A stretch of DNA of 17,571 nt from a virus (IMGVR_UViG_2740892230_000036); one strand, 5' to 3'. Counted from the first letter of the stretch, positions 725 through 13,471 are shown. A program made the numbers and translations. The notes: generated by a model not told the origin, from the letters alone.

Positions 725-1738
725 TTACTCTACTGTGGACACTGTGTGGACACTCTCGGCCTCAGTACCACCTCTTAGCGGATTAAGAGAAATGGCGTCC
801 TGAAGGTACTCTGGCGCAAAATGAGCGTAAACCATAGTTTGCTCAATCCGCGTGTGACCTAGTATCCGTTGTAGCGTGATAATACTTCCTCCATTAATCA
901 TGAAATGAGTGGCAAAGCTGTGCCTTAGTGCATGTGTGGCTTGCCCCATTGGCAAATCCGGTTTTATTGCTTTCATTGTTCGTCTGAAGCGAGGGTAATC
1001 AGCATCAGGGAATAAAAAACCTCGTTTGTTATCCGCGATCATTTTGGCAACAGCCTCTGAGATCGGGACGGTGCGTGGTTTGTTTGTTTTCGTTTTAACA
1101 AACGTGACGCGGTTATGGATGATATTTTCTGCTTTCAAACGAGCTGCTTCTCCCCAACGTGCTCCAGTACTCAGGCAAAGAATCGCAATCTTTTTATTGT
1201 CGCCGTCAAGAGCAGCAAGCAGTAAGGCAATTTCTTCCTGCGTGAGATAGCCTGTGTCTGGTTTTTCCTCCTTAAGCCTTTTTGTCCCTCTGATAGGGTG
1301 CTCACCAAAGAATAACTCCGCTTCAATCAGGGCTGTAAACATGCCGCTAATACATGTTAAATCACGATTGATACTCGAAGGTTTAATACCCTGACTTCTT
1401 CGGGTGGCGCAGTACTGGCTGATAAGCGATTTCGTAATTTGAAATGCGCATGGGTCATTCGTTATTTTTGTGAAGATTTCAATTTTTCCAAGATTAGATT
1501 TCCCATGCTCTTCGTGTTTACCCTTTAAATCCCACCAGATCTGTGTCAGCTCCGACAGACGTCGCTTGTCTGTTGGTTTTGATAGCCATTCTTTATTGTG
1601 GTGGTTGTACAACGTGTATTTCTCGAAAGCGACAGCTTCGCTTTTCTTATCAAACTTCCTACGGATGCGTTTTCCATTACGTCCAGTAGGGCGGATGTCC
1701 ACTTCATATCGACCATCATCGAGTTTTTTGATTGCCAT
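725..1738 (-). CDS. int: Tyrosine integrase (P2 Int), 337 aa
   Basis: ORF track 337 aa; sequence recognised as P2 Int with the C-terminal tyrosine-recombinase motifs (…HALRHSFATH…LGHTRIEQTMVYAH…). SD GGAGGG 7 nt upstream of ATG; transcribed with C. Confidence 0.93.
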   Translation of the reverse strand: MAIKKLDDGRYEVDIRPTGRNGKRIRRKFDKKSEAVAFEKYTLYNHHNKEWLSKPTDKRRLSELTQIWWDLKGKHEEHGKSNLGKIEIFTKITNDPCAFQITKSLISQYCATRRSQGIKPSSINRDLTCISGMFTALIEAELFFGEHPIRGTKRLKEEKPDTGYLTQEEIALLLAALDGDNKKIAILCLSTGARWGEAARLKAENIIHNRVTFVKTKTNKPRTVPISEAVAKMIADNKRGFLFPDADYPRFRRTMKAIKPDLPMGQATHALRHSFATHFMINGGSIITLQRILGHTRIEQTMVYAHFAPEYLQDAISLNPLRGGTEAESVHTVSTVE

Positions 1739-4035: not shown

Positions 4036-4307
4036 GTATTCGTATTGAAATTGGCGAACGTTATGTCGTTACCAGTGACAGCTTTCAGTTTATTCTCCAC
4101 GAGAAAAAGAGAGCTGAAAGCGGTAAAAACGCCGGTCAGGAATGGTTGGCGGTGGTTGGTTATTACCCGAAATTAAGCCAGCTCGTTTCCGGCCTGATGC
4201 ATCACGATATTCTGACCGGAAGCGCAAAGTCTTTTGCTGATTTAAACGCGCAGGTTGAGCAACTCAGCAAGCGTTGTTCAGAGGCTTTTGGCTCATATGG
4301 CCGTTAA
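4032..4307 (+). CDS. P2 orf83-like hypothetical protein (91 aa)
   Basis: 91-aa ORF, start overlaps the orf82 stop, stop overlaps the A start region. Confidence 0.75.
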   Translation: MSIRIEIGERYVVTSDSFQFILHEKKRAESGKNAGQEWLAVVGYYPKLSQLVSGLMHHDILTGSAKSFADLNAQVEQLSKRCSEAFGSYGR

Positions 4308-6582
4308 AGCCTCCGGGCGTTTTGTCCCTCCGTCAGCATTTGCCGCAGGCACCGGTGAGACGTTTACCGGTGCTTATGCATGGAACGCGCCACGCGAGGC
4401 CGTCGGGCGCGAAAGACCCCTTACACGTGACGAGATGCGTCAGGTGCAAGGTGTTTTATCCACGATTAATCGCCTGCCTTACTTTTTGCGCTCGCTGTTT
4501 ACTTCACGCTATGACTACATCCGGCGCAATAAAAGCCCGGTGCACGGGTTTTATTTCCTCACATCCACTTTTCAGCGCCGTTTATGGCCGCGTATTGAGC
4601 GCGTGAATCAGCGCCATGAAATGAACACCGACGCGTCGTTGCTGTTTCTGGCAGAGCGTGACCATTATGCGCGTCTGCCGGGGATGAATGACAAGGAGCT
4701 GAAAAAGTTTGCCGCCCGTATCTCATCGCAGCTTTTCATGATGTATGAGGAACTTTGCGATGCATGGGTTGATGCACATGGCGAGAAAGAATCGCTGTTT
4801 ACAGATGAGGCGCAGGCGCATCTGTATGGTCATGTTGCTGGCGCTGCACGTGCTTTCAATATTTCCCCTCTCTACTGGAAAAAATACCGTAAAGGACAGA
4901 TGACCACGAGGCAGGCATATTCTGCCATTGCCCGCCTGTTTAACGATGAGTGGTGGATTAGTCAGCTTAAAGGCCAGCGTATGCGCTGGCATGAGGCGTT
5001 ACTGATTGCTGTCGGGGAGGTCAATAAAGACCGTTCACCTTATGCCAGTAAACATGCCATTCGTGATGTGCGTGCGCGCCGCCAGGCAAATCTGGAATTT
5101 CTTAAATCGTGTGACCTTGAAAACAGGGAAACCGGCGAGCGCATCGACCTTATCAGTAAGGTGATGGGCAGTATTTCTAATCCTGAAATTCGCCGGATGG
5201 AGCTGATGAACACCATTGCCGGTATTGAGCGTTACGCCGCCTCAGAGGGTGATGTGGGGATGTTTATCACGCTTACCGCGCCGTCAAAGTATCACCCGAC
5301 ACGTCAGGTTGGAAAAGGCGAAAATAAAACCGTCCAGCTTAATCACGGCTGGAATGATGAGGCATTTAATCCAAAGGATGCGCAGCGTTATCTCTGCCGT
5401 ATCTGGAGCCTGATGCGCACGGCATTCAAGGATAATGATTTACAGGTCTACGGTTTGCGAGTCGTCGAGCCACACCACGACGGAACGCCGCACTGGCATA
5501 TGATGCTTTTTTGTAATCCACGCCAGCGTAACCAGATTATCGAAATCATGCGTCGCTATGCGCTCAAAGAGGATGGCGACGAAAGAGGAGCCGCGCGAAA
5601 CCGTTTTCAGGCAAAACACCTTAACCGGGGCGGTGCTGCGGGATATATCGCGAAATACATTTCAAAAAATATCGACGGCTATGCACTGGATGGTCAGCTC
5701 GATAACGATACCGGCAGACCGCTGAAAGATACTGCGGCGGCTGTTACCGCATGGGCGTCAACGTGGCGCATCCCGCAATTTAAAACGGTTGGCCTGCCGA
5801 CAATGGGAGCTTACCGTGAGCTACGTAAATTGCCTCGCGGCGTCAGCATTGCTGATGAATTTGACGAACGCGTGGAGGCTGCACGCGCCGCCGCAGACAG
5901 TGGCGATTTTGCGTTGTATATCAGCGCGCAGGGCGGGGCAAATGTCCCGCGCGATTGTCAGACTGTCAGGGTCGCCCGTAGCCCGTCGGATGAAGTTAAC
6001 GAGTACGAGGAAGAAGTCGAGAGAGTGGTCGGCATTTACGCGCCGCATCTCGGCGCGCGTCATATTCATATCACCAGAACGACGGACTGGCGCATCGTGC
6101 CGAAAGTTCCGGTCGTTGAGCCTTTGACTTTAAAAAGCGGCATCGCCGCGCCTCGGAGTCCTGTCAATAACTGTGGAAAGCTCTCCGGTGGTGATACTTC
6201 GTTACCGGTTCCCACACCTTCTGAACATGCCGCAGCCGTGCTTAATCTGGTTGATGACGGTGTTATCGAATGGAATGAGCCAGAGGTCGTGAGGGCGCTC
6301 AGAGGTGCATTAAAACACGGACTGAGAACACCAAATCGTCAGCAGAGAAACGGAAGCCTGTTAAAACCACATGAAATAGCGCCATCGGCCAGACTGACCC
6401 GGTCGGAACGAACGCAAATTACCCGTATCCGCGTTGACCTTGCTCAGAACGGTATCAGGCCGCAGCGATGGGAGATTGAGGCGCTGGCGCGTGGGGCAAC
6501 CGTAAATTATGACGGGAAAAAATTCACGTATCCGGTCGCTGATGAGTGGCCGGGATTCTCAACAGTAATGGAGTGGACATGA
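4297..6582 (+). CDS. A: Rolling-circle replication initiator A (HUH endonuclease), 761 aa
   Basis: ORF track 4255-6582; in-frame ATG at 4297 gives 761 aa, the P2 A length. HUH-type motif (…GTPHWHMMLF…) and paired active-site tyrosines (…GYIAKYISKN…). Confidence 0.92.
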   Translation: MAVKASGRFVPPSAFAAGTGETFTGAYAWNAPREAVGRERPLTRDEMRQVQGVLSTINRLPYFLRSLFTSRYDYIRRNKSPVHGFYFLTSTFQRRLWPRIERVNQRHEMNTDASLLFLAERDHYARLPGMNDKELKKFAARISSQLFMMYEELCDAWVDAHGEKESLFTDEAQAHLYGHVAGAARAFNISPLYWKKYRKGQMTTRQAYSAIARLFNDEWWISQLKGQRMRWHEALLIAVGEVNKDRSPYASKHAIRDVRARRQANLEFLKSCDLENRETGERIDLISKVMGSISNPEIRRMELMNTIAGIERYAASEGDVGMFITLTAPSKYHPTRQVGKGENKTVQLNHGWNDEAFNPKDAQRYLCRIWSLMRTAFKDNDLQVYGLRVVEPHHDGTPHWHMMLFCNPRQRNQIIEIMRRYALKEDGDERGAARNRFQAKHLNRGGAAGYIAKYISKNIDGYALDGQLDNDTGRPLKDTAAAVTAWASTWRIPQFKTVGLPTMGAYRELRKLPRGVSIADEFDERVEAARAAADSGDFALYISAQGGANVPRDCQTVRVARSPSDEVNEYEEEVERVVGIYAPHLGARHIHITRTTDWRIVPKVPVVEPLTLKSGIAAPRSPVNNCGKLSGGDTSLPVPTPSEHAAAVLNLVDDGVIEWNEPEVVRALRGALKHGLRTPNRQQRNGSLLKPHEIAPSARLTRSERTQITRIRVDLAQNGIRPQRWEIEALARGATVNYDGKKFTYPVADEWPGFSTVMEWT
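6148..6167 (+). other. Candidate P2 ori / A-protein nick region inside the A gene
   Basis: gcgcctcggagtcctgtcaa lies in the 3' quarter of A, where the P2 origin is known to reside. The exact nick-site sequence is from memory and unverified. Confidence 0.35.
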
Positions 6583-7034
6583 TGGCAAAAATTCACGAGG
6601 TAAAGCTGCACGCAAAATATTTCGACCTTGTGCTGGAAGGAAAGAAACGCGCAGAGTTTAGGAAAAATGACCGTAATTATGAGCACGGGGACACGTTGAT
6701 TTTGCATGAATGGGTGCAGGGTGTGTATACGGGGCGAAAGGTTGAAGCCCGGATAACAGATGTTACTGACCTGTCAGATTGGCTGGAAGATTATGTCTTG
6801 CTAAGTATTGAGCTGCTTAATACAGGCGCATATGAGATTGTGAACTGGAAAGAACTTAGTGAGCGTGGTCTGGTATTCAGAATTAATCATGAAATTATGC
6901 ATCAGCTCGGCCTTGCTGTTATGTATGAACCAGAGACGGGGATGTCTGGCGGGGCAATGGTTGCCACGGATGGAGCATGGAACTATTCAGATGAACAGAT
7001 GGAGCGTGCACCGCAAAACGGGTGGCTTGGATAA
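6579..7034 (+). CDS. P2 orf91-like protein with ASCH/PUA-like (DUF3850-type) fold, ~151 aa
   Basis: ATG at 6579 overlaps the A stop; motif …KYFDLVLEGKKRAEFRKNDRNYEHGDTLILHEW… is typical of ASCH-like phage proteins. Start could be 6582. Confidence 0.75.
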   Translation: MMAKIHEVKLHAKYFDLVLEGKKRAEFRKNDRNYEHGDTLILHEWVQGVYTGRKVEARITDVTDLSDWLEDYVLLSIELLNTGAYEIVNWKELSERGLVFRINHEIMHQLGLAVMYEPETGMSGGAMVATDGAWNYSDEQMERAPQNGWLG

Positions 7035-7240
7035 TGCACAGAATACCAGGCGAGATACCGCACCATAAAACTAAAAATATCAAGCTGATGGCCATTGTTC
7101 ACCGTCTACAGCAGATTATGGTCAACGAAAATCTGACGCCCGATGAGCTAGTCGGGTGTGCCGAAATAGTCCGGGATAATTACGTATGGCTTAGCTATAT
7201 CGGTCAGTCCAGCGCTGCATCGCCACCACGCAGACGATAG
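7034..7240 (+). CDS. Hypothetical small protein (68 aa) at the hotspot boundary
   Basis: ATG overlaps the orf91 stop (TAATG); backbone-like composition; no recognisable domain. Alternative GTG start at 7022. Confidence 0.5.
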   Translation: MHRIPGEIPHHKTKNIKLMAIVHRLQQIMVNENLTPDELVGCAEIVRDNYVWLSYIGQSSAASPPRRR

Positions 7241-7429
7241 AGAACGCAGCCAGCTCAGGATTGGCGGGGGATAGAATAACGAGCATAGTGATGCGATTAG
7301 ACAAACAGACTGACTGGTACACTTAGGATGGTTATAGTGGTTTCTAAGTGCTTTAGCGATACATCTGGTGGACTGTTTTACCAACCTCAGAGTTAGCTGA
7401 ATTTTTAACAAAATACCATTTTGATAGAT

Positions 7430-7457
7430 TTGCCTAATTTATTAATTAAACTATACT
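7430..7457 (+). promoter_or_regulatory. Candidate sigma70 promoter for the plus-strand cargo operon (-35 TTGCCT 7430-7435, 16-bp spacer, -10 TATACT 7452-7457)
   Basis: Hexamers read directly in the AT-rich leader ~90 bp upstream of the 7549 start. Many alternative AT-rich hexamers exist nearby. Confidence 0.3.
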
Positions 7458-7548
7458 GGACTTATACACAGTGTTCTGTTAATTGTTAGGTTGGTAAGAT
7501 ATTGTGAGGAGGTGATTACTATCTTGGCATCAATCAAGTGGAGGTTAA

Positions 7549-7785
7549 ATGATGAATATATTTGAACGTATTATAGGTAAAGCTGCCATTGAAAAGGAAA
7601 GAGAACTGGCGAGGAGGCTTGAAGCATCTGGAACAAACACTGTTGAGGTGGTAGGTCGAGGCGCGATTATCACGTCTAAAGAAGACTTGGCAAGCTCAGA
7701 TACAGTAAAATTGATGAAAATTAAAGCAAGAAGAATAGTTTCTGAGCAGGTAAAGCAAGAAGAAAAAATGGCTAAAGGGAATTAA
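7549..7785 (+). CDS. Cargo gene 1: small soluble charged protein (78 aa), unknown function
   Basis: SD GTGGAGG 4-7 nt before ATG 7549/7552; AT-rich codon usage unlike the P2 backbone; stop 2 nt before the next gene's ATG. No domain recognised. Confidence 0.75.
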   Translation: MMNIFERIIGKAAIEKERELARRLEASGTNTVEVVGRGAIITSKEDLASSDTVKLMKIKARRIVSEQVKQEEKMAKGN

Positions 7786-7787
7786 TA

Positions 7788-8549
7788 ATGTTTGCTTTAT
7801 TAATTATTCCATTACTTGTGAGTGGTTATATTGTATTAACCACTCATCCTTATCATTTCTATAGATTACACCGTTATGATGGGCAGTTGTTATATATGAA
7901 GTCAGCCGCCTTTGGTCTGTGGTGTTTTATATGGACATTGATTATAGCTTACTTAATAAAATGGATATGTCCGAGCTTCCATCCTGTCACGATGGTTCGG
8001 GAACAATTAGATCTCAAACTTAGTGATAATGGTACTGAAAGAATCATAGGATGGATGATTTTACTTTCATGTGGATCGATATTTTTGGCTTGGATATGGA
8101 GTGCCGGTGCTAGATATTTGGTTATATATAGAGCTAAAATTATAAATTATATCCAAGGGGTAAAGGCTGCCAATATTGATTATGAGAATCTTGTCATGCT
8201 AAGGATGAGGCAAGAGCTTATTAATGATAATCCAATGGATGAAATATTTTTTGATTCGTTAGTTGATAGACGTTCAATACTTATTACGTTGCAAAATAAA
8301 AAGACATATGTAGGAATTGTTAACGCATTAGGTGAGCCTAACGAGAAAGAAGGACCTAACCAGTATGTTTCAATCTATCCTATTATCTCTGGGTATAGAG
8401 ATAAGGATTCATTGAAAGTAATCTTGGTGAATGAATATAGAGAACTTGAGGATGCTGATACTAGTATCATCTTTCCACTAAAAGAAATTTCGCAAGTTTC
8501 TTGGTTTGATATGGATATTCATAAAATAGTTGAAAATAATAAGGTGTAG
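7788..8549 (+). CDS. Cargo gene 2: membrane protein with 3 N-terminal TM helices plus ~145-aa C-terminal soluble domain (253 aa), unknown function
   Basis: Hydrophobic stretches FALLIIPLLVSGYIVLTT, AAFGLWCFIWTLIIAYLIKWI and IIGWMILLSCGSIFLAWIWSAGA, followed by a hydrophilic domain. Operonic with the 78-aa gene. Confidence 0.85.
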   Translation: MFALLIIPLLVSGYIVLTTHPYHFYRLHRYDGQLLYMKSAAFGLWCFIWTLIIAYLIKWICPSFHPVTMVREQLDLKLSDNGTERIIGWMILLSCGSIFLAWIWSAGARYLVIYRAKIINYIQGVKAANIDYENLVMLRMRQELINDNPMDEIFFDSLVDRRSILITLQNKKTYVGIVNALGEPNEKEGPNQYVSIYPIISGYRDKDSLKVILVNEYRELEDADTSIIFPLKEISQVSWFDMDIHKIVENNKV

Positions 8550-8552
8550 TAA

Positions 8553-8577
8553 ATGGTCACCTATAAAAGGTGACCAT
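8553..8577. terminator. Bidirectional intrinsic-terminator-like hairpin between the convergent cargo operons
   Basis: Perfect 9-bp stem atggtcacc / ggtgaccat with loop tataaaa, 4 nt after the plus-strand stop (8549) and 6 nt before the minus-strand stop (8583-8585). T-rich tract ttattttt follows on the plus strand; A/T-rich on the other side. Confidence 0.5.
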
Positions 8578-8582
8578 AATGC

Positions 8583-10847
8583 TTATTTTTGACGAATCCT
8601 GATTTTTGGTTGTTCACGAACAACAATATCAGTTTCTTTCCAACCAAGATTATTTATTTCAACCTCGGCTTCGTTGTAGACTGTAGTAGAATTGGCAAGA
8701 GATCTTAACGTAATAGCCAATACAGCACGTTGAGGTGAAGATAGAGGCTCTTGCTCTGCTCGTCTCTGAACATCAAGTTTAAGTCTCCATTGCTCCCCAT
8801 TTATACCTTGCGGAAATTGTTTTCTATAAACTTTGACTGGAGACCATTTGAAGCCATTTTCTATCAGTACCTTTTCAAATAATTCACTCTTTTCTTTTAT
8901 TTGTGGAATTTTTCCGCTATGTATCCATTTAGCGTTAACTGGATCATAAGTGTAAGTCCCGAATGACACATCCACATTAGAACGGCAATATTCAGATGGG
9001 TAGTCATAATCAAGCGGTGGAGAATAAACGAGTGTCATAATAATTTCACCTGTGAATTTTCCATCCTCAGTACGTAATGACTGTGGTATTACAAATGGCG
9101 TTCTACTGAATTCAATACCTTCTCGGGTATCTATTTCAAATAGAAATGTAATCTCATTTTTATTGCAACCAATAATATCATTTATATGATCGCTTGGGCG
9201 TCCAAATCCTTGATAATTAAACGCATAATGCTCCGTTTTGGCTGGTGAGTTTTTTAACGCAGAATGAATTAATAGTGCCTTGATACGTTCAGGCGATGGT
9301 GAAATAGAACCATTAACATCTAGTTCATGCCACAGTGATGCCGCTAAACTTGAGATTAACGGTGCTGATAAACTTGTGCCAATACTTTCGCAAAGAGCAT
9401 TGTCCTCGCCAATAGCTATGATTCCGGTATGTTCACAGTTTAATTTACTGTCACAATTACCTCCAAAGTGATTTATCTCTGGTTTGGGTATAAAGGCTGG
9501 GCCGGGACCTCTTCTAGAAAAAGATGAAGGTTCAAATCTTTTGACCACAGAGTCAGACGATTCTAAATGGGCAACTGAGCCAACAGTTAATGAACGAACA
9601 GAATCTGCGGGGGCTGATATTCTGTCATGCCCACCTAATTCTTGAGGAGGCCAGGTTCGTTGAGGATCATAAATGTAGTTGCCGGATGCTACGACGAAAA
9701 GACAATCATGCTCATCATGAAGTGCATTTAAAAAATGCCCCAATTCAGAGAAGCTGTCTTCAGAACATGGGGATTGACAACCTAATGACAGGTTCCATAC
9801 ACGTACTTCTGGATAGGTGGTCACAGCCTCTCGGATAGCTTTCATTAATTGTGGCAATTTGAGCGTACCATCTTTGGGAAAGGCTGCAACATCAACAATT
9901 TCAGCTTGGCATTGAGGAAAACCAGCATAGTTATTCAACCATCTTCCATTAATTGCTAAACTTGCAACCATGTTCCCATGAGAATAGTCGTGTTCTCCTT
10001 TTACTAAATCTAAACTATCCCAAATCCATGGCCTAAGTATGTTGTTATTGGGATCGACTCCGCTATCTATAATTCCGAGTAGTGGATAATGTTTATCCTC
10101 TTGAGGTAAGGGAAAATCATCTAGGTCTAGAGTTTCAGCAGGAATATATTGCGATACTGTATGAGTAAGACCAAATGTTGGCATAGGTTCTAATTTTCGT
10201 ATGCCAATAAAACTTGCCAGTTGGGCGATGTTATCATTCCCTTTTACTTCATATATACTCAAATCTGAACTGATATCATACTTTTTGGGTTTTTGTATTC
10301 CTAGTTCATCTGCAAATTCCATTAATTCTTTGTCGATACTGCGGTTAGTTGTTCTATCTTTATGGTCAAAGAGTTTCAGAAGAAAACTATCTGATTTATT
10401 TTTATCTATAACATCATGGTTAAGACTAAAAGGTTCGATCTTTTCAATTACAGCAATATGTACTGTCCCATTATGAGAATTAGTGCTATTTTCAATTTTT
10501 TTGCGAAGTTGTGCTAACCCTTTTTCAGTAACACTTATAAGTAATTCTCCAAAATTATCACTGCCTATTACGGGACATGTATTATCACCTAATAGGCTTG
10601 ATGGGCGATGTGACTTAGCAAGAGCTTTTTCATGAAGAGTAACTCTAGCCACCGCCGGTATATTGGGCCATTTTTTAAATGAGCTCTGGAAAAAATTTTT
10701 AACGTCATCGACTTCTTGTTTGAGTCTATTTTTTAGACTAGTTGTTACTGTTCGGATAGGTTGTTTCTTTCCGAAATTATATGTTTTTTCAGTAAAATCT
10801 TGAGGTGTCGCCTCAATTATTTTTATTGGTCTTTCTTTGTTACTCAT
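8583..10847 (-). CDS. Cargo gene 4: subtilisin-like serine protease (peptidase S8), 754 aa, with uncharacterised N- and C-terminal extensions; IetS-like
   Basis: Catalytic motifs in canonical order: Asp (…LLGIIDSGVD…, ~D261), His (…DYSHGNMVASLA…, ~H290), oxyanion Asn (…VVASGNY…), Ser (…IGTSLSAPL…, ~S492; codon at 9372-9374). Start ATG overlaps the ATPase stop (ATGA). Confidence 0.88.
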   Translation of the reverse strand: MSNKERPIKIIEATPQDFTEKTYNFGKKQPIRTVTTSLKNRLKQEVDDVKNFFQSSFKKWPNIPAVARVTLHEKALAKSHRPSSLLGDNTCPVIGSDNFGELLISVTEKGLAQLRKKIENSTNSHNGTVHIAVIEKIEPFSLNHDVIDKNKSDSFLLKLFDHKDRTTNRSIDKELMEFADELGIQKPKKYDISSDLSIYEVKGNDNIAQLASFIGIRKLEPMPTFGLTHTVSQYIPAETLDLDDFPLPQEDKHYPLLGIIDSGVDPNNNILRPWIWDSLDLVKGEHDYSHGNMVASLAINGRWLNNYAGFPQCQAEIVDVAAFPKDGTLKLPQLMKAIREAVTTYPEVRVWNLSLGCQSPCSEDSFSELGHFLNALHDEHDCLFVVASGNYIYDPQRTWPPQELGGHDRISAPADSVRSLTVGSVAHLESSDSVVKRFEPSSFSRRGPGPAFIPKPEINHFGGNCDSKLNCEHTGIIAIGEDNALCESIGTSLSAPLISSLAASLWHELDVNGSISPSPERIKALLIHSALKNSPAKTEHYAFNYQGFGRPSDHINDIIGCNKNEITFLFEIDTREGIEFSRTPFVIPQSLRTEDGKFTGEIIMTLVYSPPLDYDYPSEYCRSNVDVSFGTYTYDPVNAKWIHSGKIPQIKEKSELFEKVLIENGFKWSPVKVYRKQFPQGINGEQWRLKLDVQRRAEQEPLSSPQRAVLAITLRSLANSTTVYNEAEVEINNLGWKETDIVVREQPKIRIRQK

Positions 10848-12007
10848 AATATCTCTCTATAGTTCTTAGTTAGCCTTGACACTTTAGCATTTGAAAGCCC
10901 TAGTATTTTTGCTATCTTTCGTATTGTAAATCTTTTGGGATTGTATTCTCTGAGAGTGGTCACAATCTTTATAAGTAAATTATCTTCTTCATCAAATGTA
11001 ACTCCCTTCGCTTCTAAGATAGCCTCGACTAAAAATCGGGTATCGATTTGTTTATTATTGTAAACCAGAGCATGTCGCTCAGATCTTAAGCAGCATTGTT
11101 CTATAAATGAGCAGTTTAGCCCTGAGGATATTTCCGCAAGGTCATCAACAAAATCGTCATATGTGGCTTTTATGTTTGAATATTGTTCAAATAGTTGTTT
11201 TCTGACTTCAAAATCAGGCAATCCAATAGATATTCTATACTCAAAGCGCCTCCAAACTGCGCTATCTAGAAGATTTTCATGATTACTTGCAGCAATCAAT
11301 ATTGTTTCTTCAGGTAGATTGTCAATATTTTGCAATAAAGAAACCACCACCCTCTTCAGTTCACCTAACTCATGCTGATCATCTCTAGCCTTTGCTAGAG
11401 AATCTAGTTCATCTAGAAATAAAACACATGGTGCTTTACTTGCATACTCAAATAGCTGCCTGATATTTTTAGAAGTAGACCCCAGATATGATGAGACTAA
11501 GGAGTCACATCTTGCAGTAAGAAGCGGTAAATTTAGACAGGATGCAATATATTTTGATGTCAAGGTTTTACCACAACCTGGTGGCCCATATAAAATCATA
11601 GAGGATGTCACGCCAAGACCGGCATCCTTTAATTCTTTAGCTCGTTCAGTGAAAGTCAAAAATTCTTTAATTTTTTTCAGAGTGCTATCTTTCAACAATG
11701 GGAGTTGAATTTCAGAAGACGGTTGAGTTACGTCTGCTAAATCAAATTTAGTTTCTTTATCTACAGGTAATGTATCAAGACGTTCAAAAATAGGTGATGT
11801 ACTACGTGATACTTTCTGCAAGTTAAACGTGTTTTTATCTTGAATACTGCCTCTAATGGCTGAAGCAAGCTCAGGCAGCCCCATAGAATCATAGGAACGC
11901 GCGAGTTTCGAAGCCTGCCGAACAAAAGCAACTTTATCCCCTTTGAGTCCAAGACTGATAAGCTGCGAAAGTATCTCGTTTGTGGTCATTTGTGATACAA
12001 ACCTCAT
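10844..12007 (-). CDS. Cargo gene 3: AAA+ ATPase (387 aa) with C-terminal HTH-like tail; IetA-like
   Basis: Walker A …ILYGPPGCGKTL… (K~147), Walker B …CVLFLDELDSL…, sensor-1 …IAASN…, Arg-finger region …VWRRF…. C-terminus …IRKIAKILGLSNAKVSRLTKNY… resembles a helix-turn-helix. Alternative start at Met7 (11989). Confidence 0.88.
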   Translation of the reverse strand: MRFVSQMTTNEILSQLISLGLKGDKVAFVRQASKLARSYDSMGLPELASAIRGSIQDKNTFNLQKVSRSTSPIFERLDTLPVDKETKFDLADVTQPSSEIQLPLLKDSTLKKIKEFLTFTERAKELKDAGLGVTSSMILYGPPGCGKTLTSKYIASCLNLPLLTARCDSLVSSYLGSTSKNIRQLFEYASKAPCVLFLDELDSLAKARDDQHELGELKRVVVSLLQNIDNLPEETILIAASNHENLLDSAVWRRFEYRISIGLPDFEVRKQLFEQYSNIKATYDDFVDDLAEISSGLNCSFIEQCCLRSERHALVYNNKQIDTRFLVEAILEAKGVTFDEEDNLLIKIVTTLREYNPKRFTIRKIAKILGLSNAKVSRLTKNYREIL

Positions 12008-12248
12008 TAATCTGTTGTCTAAATGGCTTATAGGTGAGACAAATTTCTATTTTAATGTAGTTTATATGTATTTTGGTGAAACGAACACTATGTTTTACAT
12101 AAATCTTTCAGGTTTGGAGTTCTTGGAGGGCATAGAGTTGCATCAATTTGCATTCTAATTAGACTTTTTTATTGCTATCGTATTCTACATGTGACTAGGT
12201 CTGCCCTTCCTGATGCGTTTGCATTAAAACCGCCCCATGAAGCGGGCG

Positions 12249-12267
12249 GGCGAGGCGGGGAAAGCAC
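12249..12267. other. P2 cos (19-nt cohesive-end sequence)
   Basis: ggcgaggcggggaaagcac matches the P2 cohesive end as I recall it, and sits between the cargo and Q exactly where cos lies in an integrated P2. Confidence 0.8.
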
Positions 12268-12409
12268 TGCGCGCTGGCGGTGGTGCTGATTTTATTTTTT
12301 CAGCGTCTGAGCGCGTCGTGACGGCGTTTAGATTGTGCACCGGGGCGTTGGTGTGTTTGCGGGGTGTTTTGTGCGGTGGTGAGCGTGTGAGGGCGTGATG
12401 ACGGGATGT

Positions 12410-12431
12410 AAAAAAGCCGCCCGCAGGCGGC
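12410..12431 (-). terminator. Intrinsic terminator after Q (end of the leftward P-Q late transcript)
   Basis: Minus-strand GC hairpin gccgcc-tgcg-ggcggc (12416-12431) followed by TTTTTT (plus-strand A-run 12410-12415), 5 nt after the Q stop. Confidence 0.65.
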
Positions 12432-12436
12432 AATGT

Positions 12437-13471
12437 TCAGTCGTTGTCAGTGTCCAGTGAGTAGTTTTTAAAGCGGATGACCTCCTGACCGAGCCAGCCG
12501 TTTATTTCCCGAATCCTGTCCTGTAACGGGATAAGCTCATTGCGGACAAAGACCTTTGCCACTTTCTCAATATCACCCAGCGCCCCGACGTTCTCCGGCT
12601 TGCCGCCCATCAACTGAAAGGGGATGCGGTGCGCGTCCAGCAGGTCTGCGGCACTGGCTTTTTTGATATTAAAAAAATCGTCCTTCGTCGCCACTTCACT
12701 GAGCGGGATAATTTTAATGCCGTCGGCTTTCCCTTGTGGGGCATAGAGAAACAGATTTTTAAAGTTGTTGCGGCCTTTCGACTTCACCATGTTTTCGCGA
12801 AGCATTTCGATATCGTTGCGATCCTGCACGGCATCGGTGACGTACATGATGTATCCGGCATGTGCGCCGTTTTCGTAATACTTGCGGCGGAACAGCGTGG
12901 CTGATTCATTCAGCCAGGCAGAGTTAAGGGCGCTGAGATATTCCGGCAGGCCGTACAGCTCCTGATTAATATCCGGCTCCAGCAGGTGAAACACGGAGCC
13001 GGGCGCGAAAGGTGTCGGCTCGTTGAAGGACGGCACCCACCAGTAAACATCCTCCTCCACGCCACGGCGGGTATATTTTGCCGGTGAGGTTTCCAGTCTG
13101 ATGACCTTACCGGTGGTGCTGTAACGCTTTTCCAGAAACGCATTACCGAACACCAGAAAATCCAGCACAAAGCGGCTGAAATCCTGCTGGGAAAGCCACG
13201 GGTGCGGGATAAACGTTGAAGCCAGAATATTACGTTTGACGTAAATCGGTGAACTGTGATACACGGCAGCACGCAGACTTTTTGCCAGACCGGTAAAGCT
13301 GACCGGCGGCTCATACCATCTGCCGTTACTGATGCATTCGACGTAATCCAGAATGTCACGGCGGTCGAGTACCGGCACCGGCTCACCAAAGGTGAATGCC
13401 TCCATTTTCGGGGCGCTGGCGGTCATTGTTTTTGCCGCAGGTCGCGGTGTTTTCCCTTTTTTCTTGCTCAT
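12437..13471 (-). CDS. Q: Portal protein Q, 344 aa
   Basis: 344-aa ORF of P2 Q length; sequence recognised as the P2 capsid portal; start overlaps the P stop. Confidence 0.93.
   Translation of the reverse strand: MSKKKGKTPRPAAKTMTASAPKMEAFTFGEPVPVLDRRDILDYVECISNGRWYEPPVSFTGLAKSLRAAVYHSSPIYVKRNILASTFIPHPWLSQQDFSRFVLDFLVFGNAFLEKRYSTTGKVIRLETSPAKYTRRGVEEDVYWWVPSFNEPTPFAPGSVFHLLEPDINQELYGLPEYLSALNSAWLNESATLFRRKYYENGAHAGYIMYVTDAVQDRNDIEMLRENMVKSKGRNNFKNLFLYAPQGKADGIKIIPLSEVATKDDFFNIKKASAADLLDAHRIPFQLMGGKPENVGALGDIEKVAKVFVRNELIPLQDRIREINGWLGQEVIRFKNYSLDTDND

Follow-up and report, generated by a model that had tools for sequence, protein, structure and literature searches.

In the lambda lysogen the prophage pair RexA/RexB is expressed from a gene for a cytoplasmic protein followed by a gene for a multi-pass inner-membrane protein. 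SieA and SieB of P22 and Imm of T4 are small inner-membrane proteins of phages or prophages that exclude other phages; these are single genes, without a coupled cytoplasmic partner. Phage P2 carries tin and old in a slot of low guanine-plus-cytosine (GC) content between its replication region and its portal gene. Tin is said to poison T4 gp32, an observation attributed to Mosig et al. 1997. Cassettes from the P2 and P4 hotspots that have been tested are mostly anti-phage (PMC9122126, PMC13586616). Here we describe a gene pair, S and L, found in this slot of an E. coli P2-like prophage (IMGVR_UViG_2740892230_000036; the whole stretch analysed, 17,571 nucleotides (nt) long, is called the window below). 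S encodes a small basic protein and L an inner-membrane protein with three transmembrane (TM) helices and a soluble C-terminal half. We tentatively propose that S-L is a self-contained phage-exclusion module that would act at the membrane and is laid out like a toxin-antitoxin pair, a reading to which we give a little less than an even chance.

The pair shares with RexA/RexB its gene order and, in the logic proposed here, a cytoplasmic component that would control a membrane effector. The proteins differ, however: RexB crosses the membrane with 4 TM helices and lacks a soluble domain, L combines 3 TM helices with an Sm-like barrel, and RexA is 279 amino acids (aa) long against 55-95 aa for the partners of L. 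Profile alignment with hhalign finds no relation between the L family and RexB (probability 0.2%) or between the S family and RexA (0.8%).

S and L form a constrained two-gene unit in the P2 hotspot

The window has a variable stretch between the replication and portal genes, with 37.6% GC as against 53-56% in the phage backbone. Similarity to phage P2 itself ends at 6802, the P2 record compared stopping short of the portal gene; in other P2-like phages homology returns at about 12,220-12,470, at or just ahead of that gene. These limits place S-L inside the classical P2 hotspot, the site of tin and old in P2. An earlier note on this DNA, made from the sequence alone, had placed the pair there, as two plus-strand genes 2 nt apart with an AT-rich leader of their own, encoding a small soluble protein and a protein with three TM helices and a soluble C-terminal domain. 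Its coordinates proved exact, its description of the two proteins is supported, and the hotspot location is borne out, next to the known defence system IetAS. The features of the pair are the following.

7430-7457, plus strand: predicted sigma-70 promoter, TTGCCT-16 nt-TATACT, from a consensus scan
7454-7472, plus strand: candidate LexA-box-like operator TACTGGACTTATACACAGT, a CTG-N10-CAG palindrome over the -10 element
7540-7544, plus strand: Shine-Dalgarno sequence GGAGG of S, read off the sequence and the same in all five aligned leaders
7549-7785, plus strand: gene S, 78 aa, with an ATGATG start 4 nt past GGAGG
7775-7779, plus strand: Shine-Dalgarno-like AAGGG for L, within the 3' end of S and 8 nt before the L start
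7788-8549, plus strand: gene L, 253 aa, inner-membrane protein, beginning 2 nt past the S stop
8553-8577, unstranded: 10-bp hairpin from a terminator scan, shared terminator of the convergent L and IetS

The GC content is 38% in S, 33% in L and 31% in their shared leader (7406-7548). Homology with a different P2-like backbone starts at 7406; leader and promoter are therefore part of the cassette. The promoter block is kept in Enterobacter and IMG/VR leaders that are about 79% identical, and the promoter is probably active. The position of AAGGG within the end of S suggests that translation of L is coupled to that of S. A small first gene that abuts or overlaps a larger second one, behind its own promoter with an operator-like site, is the layout typical of type II toxin-antitoxin modules.

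Both S and L are genuine genes and not chance open reading frames (ORFs). This conclusion follows from four observations: the ratio of nonsynonymous to synonymous substitution rates is low (0.05-0.08 in S and 0.05 in L, when compared with variants of about 87% identity), as under strong purifying selection; both genes are in RefSeq, labelled as hypothetical proteins; L has many homologues; and an S-like ORF recurs upstream of them.

A word-indexed search retrieves 241 L clusters from Gammaproteobacteria, every one hypothetical. The exhaustive profile search extends this to 2,638 clusters at 50% identity with E <= 1e-3 (1,298 with E <= 1e-10) in Proteobacteria, Acidobacteria, Bacteroidota and Leptospirota; the matches listed are largely uniform, at about 250-300 aa. 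The 65 genome loci with L come from Gamma-, Beta- and Alphaproteobacteria, Turneriella, Acidobacteria and Flavobacterium.

Almost every L gene is preceded by a same-strand ORF of 45-120 aa, whose end falls anywhere from 4 nt past the L start to 24 nt ahead of it. A hidden Markov model (HMM) iterated from the S of the window groups 55 of the 70 unique upstream ORFs. A second group (Klebsiella phage, SEN5, Photobacterium, Proteus and Serratia) aligns with S in register but weakly (hhalign E = 0.0026, probability 11%). Several of the remaining upstream ORFs score just over background with the HMM, and the most divergent ones lie at noise level. No third gene is conserved and the flanks are heterogeneous in 38 lineages; together with the recurrent pairing, this defines S-L as a two-gene unit. 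The idea that S tracks the Sm-like domain alone was dropped: the distant Acidobacteria and Flavobacterium members of the L family retain the full plan of three TM helices and a barrel.

In insect endosymbionts (Arsenophonus, Sodalis and Phlomobacter; loci L014, L030, L032, L067, L071, L082, L083 and L088), L is repeatedly in two or three pieces and S is mostly intact. The broken L genes probably reflect general genome decay.

A mobile accessory cassette of temperate phages

S-L is a horizontally mobile accessory cassette of temperate phages. In P2-type hotspots it occurs with IetAS (the window), alone (Salmonella SEN5; L015/L016) or with bSEFIR (Klebsiella phage ST15-OXA48phi14.1). It is also found at the extreme integrase-att end of lambdoid prophages of Cronobacter (phiES15), E. 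coli and Klebsiella, and in another lambdoid context it adjoins genes of the Q region (L012). The L protein of the E. coli lambdoid prophage is listed in more than 1,800 blocks of the assembly index and is present in 17 of 5,426 complete E. coli genomes. Known defence genes lie close by: about 11 of 103 flanking proteins from the 38 lineages match PADLOC, namely Vsr, a methyltransferase, a restriction endonuclease, a CBASS cyclase, AbiEi, PD-T4-6, mad6 and IetAS.

In the Klebsiella phage (L004; 4783-7492), a divergent S/L-like pair, gp13 and gp14, precedes a 69-aa ORF and a gene for bSEFIR/TIR. The bSEFIR gene is also present in E. coli phage 500465-1 (L110), there without S/L and split by frameshifts. 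We considered gp13-gp16 as a single TIR system with an L homologue, possibly the 2TM+1TM+TIR system of Rousset. This is unsupported, as the TIR protein is bSEFIR and occurs without S/L in 500465-1.

Topology, conservation and fold of L

Hydropathy delimits three hydrophobic segments in L, at residues 1-19, 39-60 and 86-108; the C-terminal half behind them is soluble. Positive charge is in net excess across the family on loop 1 (residues 20-38) and on the stretch after TM3, and not on loop 2, which argues for an N-out, C-in topology. The protein can be divided as follows.

7788-7901, plus strand: residues 1-38, TM1 (1-19, with the PLLVSG motif) and cytoplasmic loop 1 (YRLHRYDGQLLYMK), where conservation within the family is highest
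7902-8111, plus strand: residues 39-108, TM2 (39-60), periplasmic loop 2 (61-88) and TM3 (86-108), from hydropathy and positive-inside counts
8232-8507, plus strand: residues 149-240, cytoplasmic Sm/LSm/Hfq-like barrel made of a helix and bent strands, with the motifs KxYVG, EPNE, SGYRDKD and SWF

Conservation is uneven along the chain. Mean pairwise identity reaches 66-73% in TM1 and loop 1 and 56% in the barrel, and is 25-37% in TM2, loop 2, TM3 and the linker. Residues P8, S12 and G13 and the string LHRYDGQLLYxK are invariant, loop 1 has a constant length of 19 residues, and the barrel keeps the motifs KxYVG, EPNE, PxxSGYRxK and SWF. Loop 2 is the most variable part, with a mean identity of 13-26% and a length of 24 to more than 100 residues among homologues. 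The conserved surfaces are thus cytoplasmic and the variable loop is periplasmic.

L homologues of 334-354 aa (P0092, P0115, P0141, P0210 and P0263) differ only by a greatly enlarged, low-complexity loop 2. Some of them end with a WWAKWWAK-type amphipathic tail.

It is possible that L brings about superinfection exclusion by blocking genome entry. Like T4 Imm, P22 SieA or HK97 gp15, it would then hinder, from its place in the inner membrane, the ejection or DNA-translocation machinery of an incoming phage without killing the cell, and S would serve as an assembly or stabilising factor. An accessory membrane protein of a prophage with its own promoter fits this role, and a hypervariable loop 2 is what one would expect of a segment touching rapidly evolving phage proteins. 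Yet that loop may simply be unconstrained, and the strongest conservation is on the cytoplasmic side and includes a barrel of a ligand-binding type. An obligatory, coupled cytoplasmic partner is also atypical of known entry blockers. Neither SieA nor SieB is related in sequence: hhalign gives the L family a probability of 0.4-0.5% against both, and Pfam SieB is not matched. We consider such an entry block unlikely.

An AlphaFold2 model of L, built with 80 homologues, has a mean predicted local distance difference test (pLDDT) score of 82. It contains two linker helices, then a helix and a bent β-barrel at residues 149-240. The Sm/LSm/Hfq fold places a strongly bent barrel of five strands after an N-terminal helix, and the model displays both. 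Searches of the PDB with the model return partial Sm-like matches only and those of BFVD weak ones; nothing in either database matches the whole of L. In the model, the barrel also appears to resemble ligand-sensing WYL domains, namely that of DriD and those of the defence regulators BrxR and CapW. Contrary to all these barrels, that of L is tethered to three TM helices, and its motifs EPNE and SGYRDKD are specific to the family. No Pfam LSM, Hfq or WYL match is found for L or for 58 distant members, and a PDB sequence search with L gives nothing under E = 0.6.

MscS-type channels are heptamers in which three TM helices precede an Sm-like β domain. L resembles them in having three TM helices and then a small cytoplasmic barrel, possibly arranged as a ring. 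Neither a Pfam MS_channel match nor a structural match to the TM3-β unit was found for L.

Protein S and comparison with known families

S is basic and soluble, with a helix, a β-hairpin (VVGRGT; VEVVGRGAII in the protein of the window) and a second helix. Its isoelectric point is 9.7, as opposed to 5.1 for the tail of L. Pfam contains nothing for S or for 25 of its homologues, and a search of plasmids gives none.

The earlier note could assign neither protein to a family, and the profile databases bear this out. Pfam and NCBIfam hold no S or L family, the best in NCBIfam being a sub-threshold STM3941 match (E = 0.018); PADLOC is silent; and PHROGs places S and L in two families, both of unknown function. 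Its suggestion that L could instead be a homologue of P2 Tin does not survive comparison. Tin has exactly the length of L (253 aa) and comes from the same hotspot. However, BLASTP against Tin (NP_046797) reveals no similarity (best E = 6.5, with 6/20 identities), and Tin is a soluble protein without hydrophobic segments. Tin is moreover transcribed together with old from the strand opposite to gene A, whereas S and L lie on the gene A strand behind their own promoter. Homology between L and Tin therefore has practically no likelihood, and this candidate was rejected.

The locus itself appears in Table S5A of Rousset et al. 2022 as hypothetical proteins beside Peptidase_S8 and AAA/HTH_50. Two-gene membrane modules carried by prophages, whether for exclusion or of a toxin-antitoxin-like type, are a familiar kind of system; the S and L families, and the architecture of three TM helices and an Sm-like barrel with a small partner, are undescribed in the literature searched.

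A tentative mode of action

The phage-exclusion reading draws on several lines of evidence: S and L are real, coupled and constrained genes conserved as a unit; they recur at accessory and hotspot positions with defence neighbours; L has a small barrel and conserved cytoplasmic surfaces; S and the L tail are opposite in charge; and the layout resembles that of toxin-antitoxin modules. In the scheme that we envisage, L would insert in the membrane through its three TM helices, N-out and C-in. Its barrel would probably assemble L into a ring in the manner of Sm, LSm and Hfq domains, gathering 18-21 helices and placing the conserved TM1 and loop 1 at the mouth on the cytoplasmic side. Translational coupling would fix the ratio of S to L, and basic S would probably bind the cytoplasmic face of L, whose tail is acidic, and hold it inactive. 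The infection cue, sensed in the cytoplasm, may be a nucleic acid or nucleotide in the Sm/WYL-like pocket, or the loss or titration of S. Freed L would then compromise the membrane and halt phage development.

Several points weigh against this scheme. The case for function is computational throughout. Small folds of the Sm-like barrel type are very common, so that ring formation and ligand binding are inferences, and a fold search with S gives no structural match. The hypervariable periplasmic loop suits an entry block at least equally well. In PADLOC-DB v2.0.0, no profile matches S, L or four homologous phage pairs at E <= 0.1, with IetS and IetA scoring strongly in the same runs, and literature and accession searches found no description of either family. 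In distant lineages the neighbours are mostly housekeeping genes rather than defence genes. Finally, throughout the Pseudomonas oryzihabitans/luteola clade the pair has a single syntenic position on the chromosome and is vertically inherited (loci L045-L055, L070, L073, L042, L072 and L076). There, an MFS transporter gene is adjacent, the luteola group also has a gene for a GGDEF protein, and the nucleotide divergence of the pair equals that of its flanks.

This vertical synteny and the housekeeping neighbours make a general cellular role of S-L possible. The pair could be an addiction (toxin-antitoxin) module that stabilises the element carrying it, or provide a membrane or stress function useful to the host and hitch-hiking on prophages, perhaps under SOS regulation. 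Its heterogeneous neighbours and the empty PADLOC result are compatible with such a role, as is the LexA-box-like site over the -10 element. The latter is the sole match in the window, with 0.07 expected by chance; it agrees with the E. coli LexA consensus at 15/20 positions and is identical in two related leaders (L010 and L028). LexA-type boxes occur upstream of S-L in 3 of 36 lineages, where about 0.2 would be expected; besides that of the window, these are one Pseudomonas and one Proteus lineage. The box may thus function as an operator, and we treat SOS control as a lead, not a result. On the other side, S-L repeatedly occupies the accessory and defence slots of phages, where it is stacked with IetAS and bSEFIR. 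It is moreover a rare accessory in E. coli (12 + 17 of 5,426 genomes), and known defence genes are enriched near it. A role other than anti-phage is, in our estimation, rather unlikely while keeping appreciable weight.

If phage exclusion is borne out and S-L is protective, it would add a defence family absent from PADLOC, Pfam and NCBIfam, one that counts 2,638 clusters at 50% identity spread over at least four phyla. With it would come a new design of membrane effector, in which three TM helices are fused to an Sm/Hfq-like barrel under a partner of 55-95 aa. Should the pair not be defensive, it would still be a very widespread and strongly conserved membrane gene pair.

The neighbouring IetAS system

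IetAS reportedly goes back to Gao et al. 2020. It lies immediately downstream of S-L, is complete in the window and converges with the pair.

8583-10847, minus strand: IetS, an S8 protease (PADLOC PDLC02197, E = 1e-273; Pfam Peptidase_S8)
10844-12007, minus strand: IetA, an AAA ATPase with a C-terminal helix-turn-helix (HTH) domain (PADLOC PDLC02196, E = 9e-132; Pfam AAA)

The mechanism of IetAS is unknown, and the system recruits accessory genes such as ietH (PMC13069673). Among the 5,426 complete E. coli genomes, the S-L variant of the window occurs in 12 and its IetAS variant in 12; in all 12 S-L copies the match extends into the adjoining S8 peptidase gene. The arrangement of S, L, IetS and IetA is preserved in P2-like and lambdoid contexts, and the four genes diverge in step, as their identities to the window show.

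Enterobacter, Citrobacter and IMG/VR copies: L 87-88%, S 88-89%, IetS 90-91%, IetA 84-85%
Scandinavium and two IMG/VR copies (the latter lambdoid): L 55-56%, S 54-56%, IetS 59-60%, IetA 55-57%

It could be that in this lineage S-L and IetAS constitute one four-gene system, with S-L as an effector, substrate or regulator of IetS. The convergent arrangement, preserved while the genes diverged in step (the 87-91% and 54-60% sets), its presence in both phage types, the equal counts of both variants in E. coli and the precedent of ietH all speak for such a coupling. However, co-divergence can also arise from block transfer of hotspot content. S and L are not homologues of IetA or IetS and lie on the opposite strand behind a promoter of their own. 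IetAS is missing from the surroundings of most S-L pairs, and most IetAS have no S-L. Relatives of IetS at 31-42% identity come without the pair, and other P2 hotspots carry the ATPase and protease (AAA/HTH_50 and Peptidase_S8) alone. Consistent co-occurrence is therefore not seen across the IetAS family; linkage is limited to a subclade with IetS identity of at least 59%, in which co-inheritance extends over long distances. We find a functional coupling improbable, and two independent modules that have long travelled as one block are the simplest reading.

One may go further and imagine L as a new class of ring-forming membrane effector. Its Sm/WYL-like ring would sense a nucleic acid or nucleotide of infection and gate a pore of 18-21 helices plugged by S. 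In this prophage lineage it would also cooperate with IetAS as the missing effector of that system, for example through protease-triggered release of S. This picture is a long shot. The co-diverging block nevertheless offers a concrete handle on the mechanism of IetAS, and it would illustrate how the cargo of hotspots passes between P2-like and lambdoid phages in blocks of several systems.

Other features of the prophage

The rest of the window, a P2-like prophage, has the following features around the pair.

725-1738, minus strand: integrase
Between the integrase and gene A: repressor and cox region
4255-6582, same strand as S and L: replication gene A
6546-7034: DUF3850/ASCH protein
7022-7240: 72-aa ORF after the DUF3850/ASCH gene, phrog_11386
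7148-7411, minus strand: 87-aa ORF between the 72-aa ORF and the S-L promoter
Right of the variable stretch: portal, terminase, scaffold and capsid genes

An Rfam scan of the window yields no RNA family. Since similarity to P2 ends at 6802, the border of the hotspot cuts through the DUF3850/ASCH gene, whose product has an additional C-terminal DUF7415 domain relative to P2 Orf91. The 87-aa ORF has no RefSeq annotation and matches phrog_33524 with E = 3e-14; it may represent a remnant or a small gene in antisense orientation.

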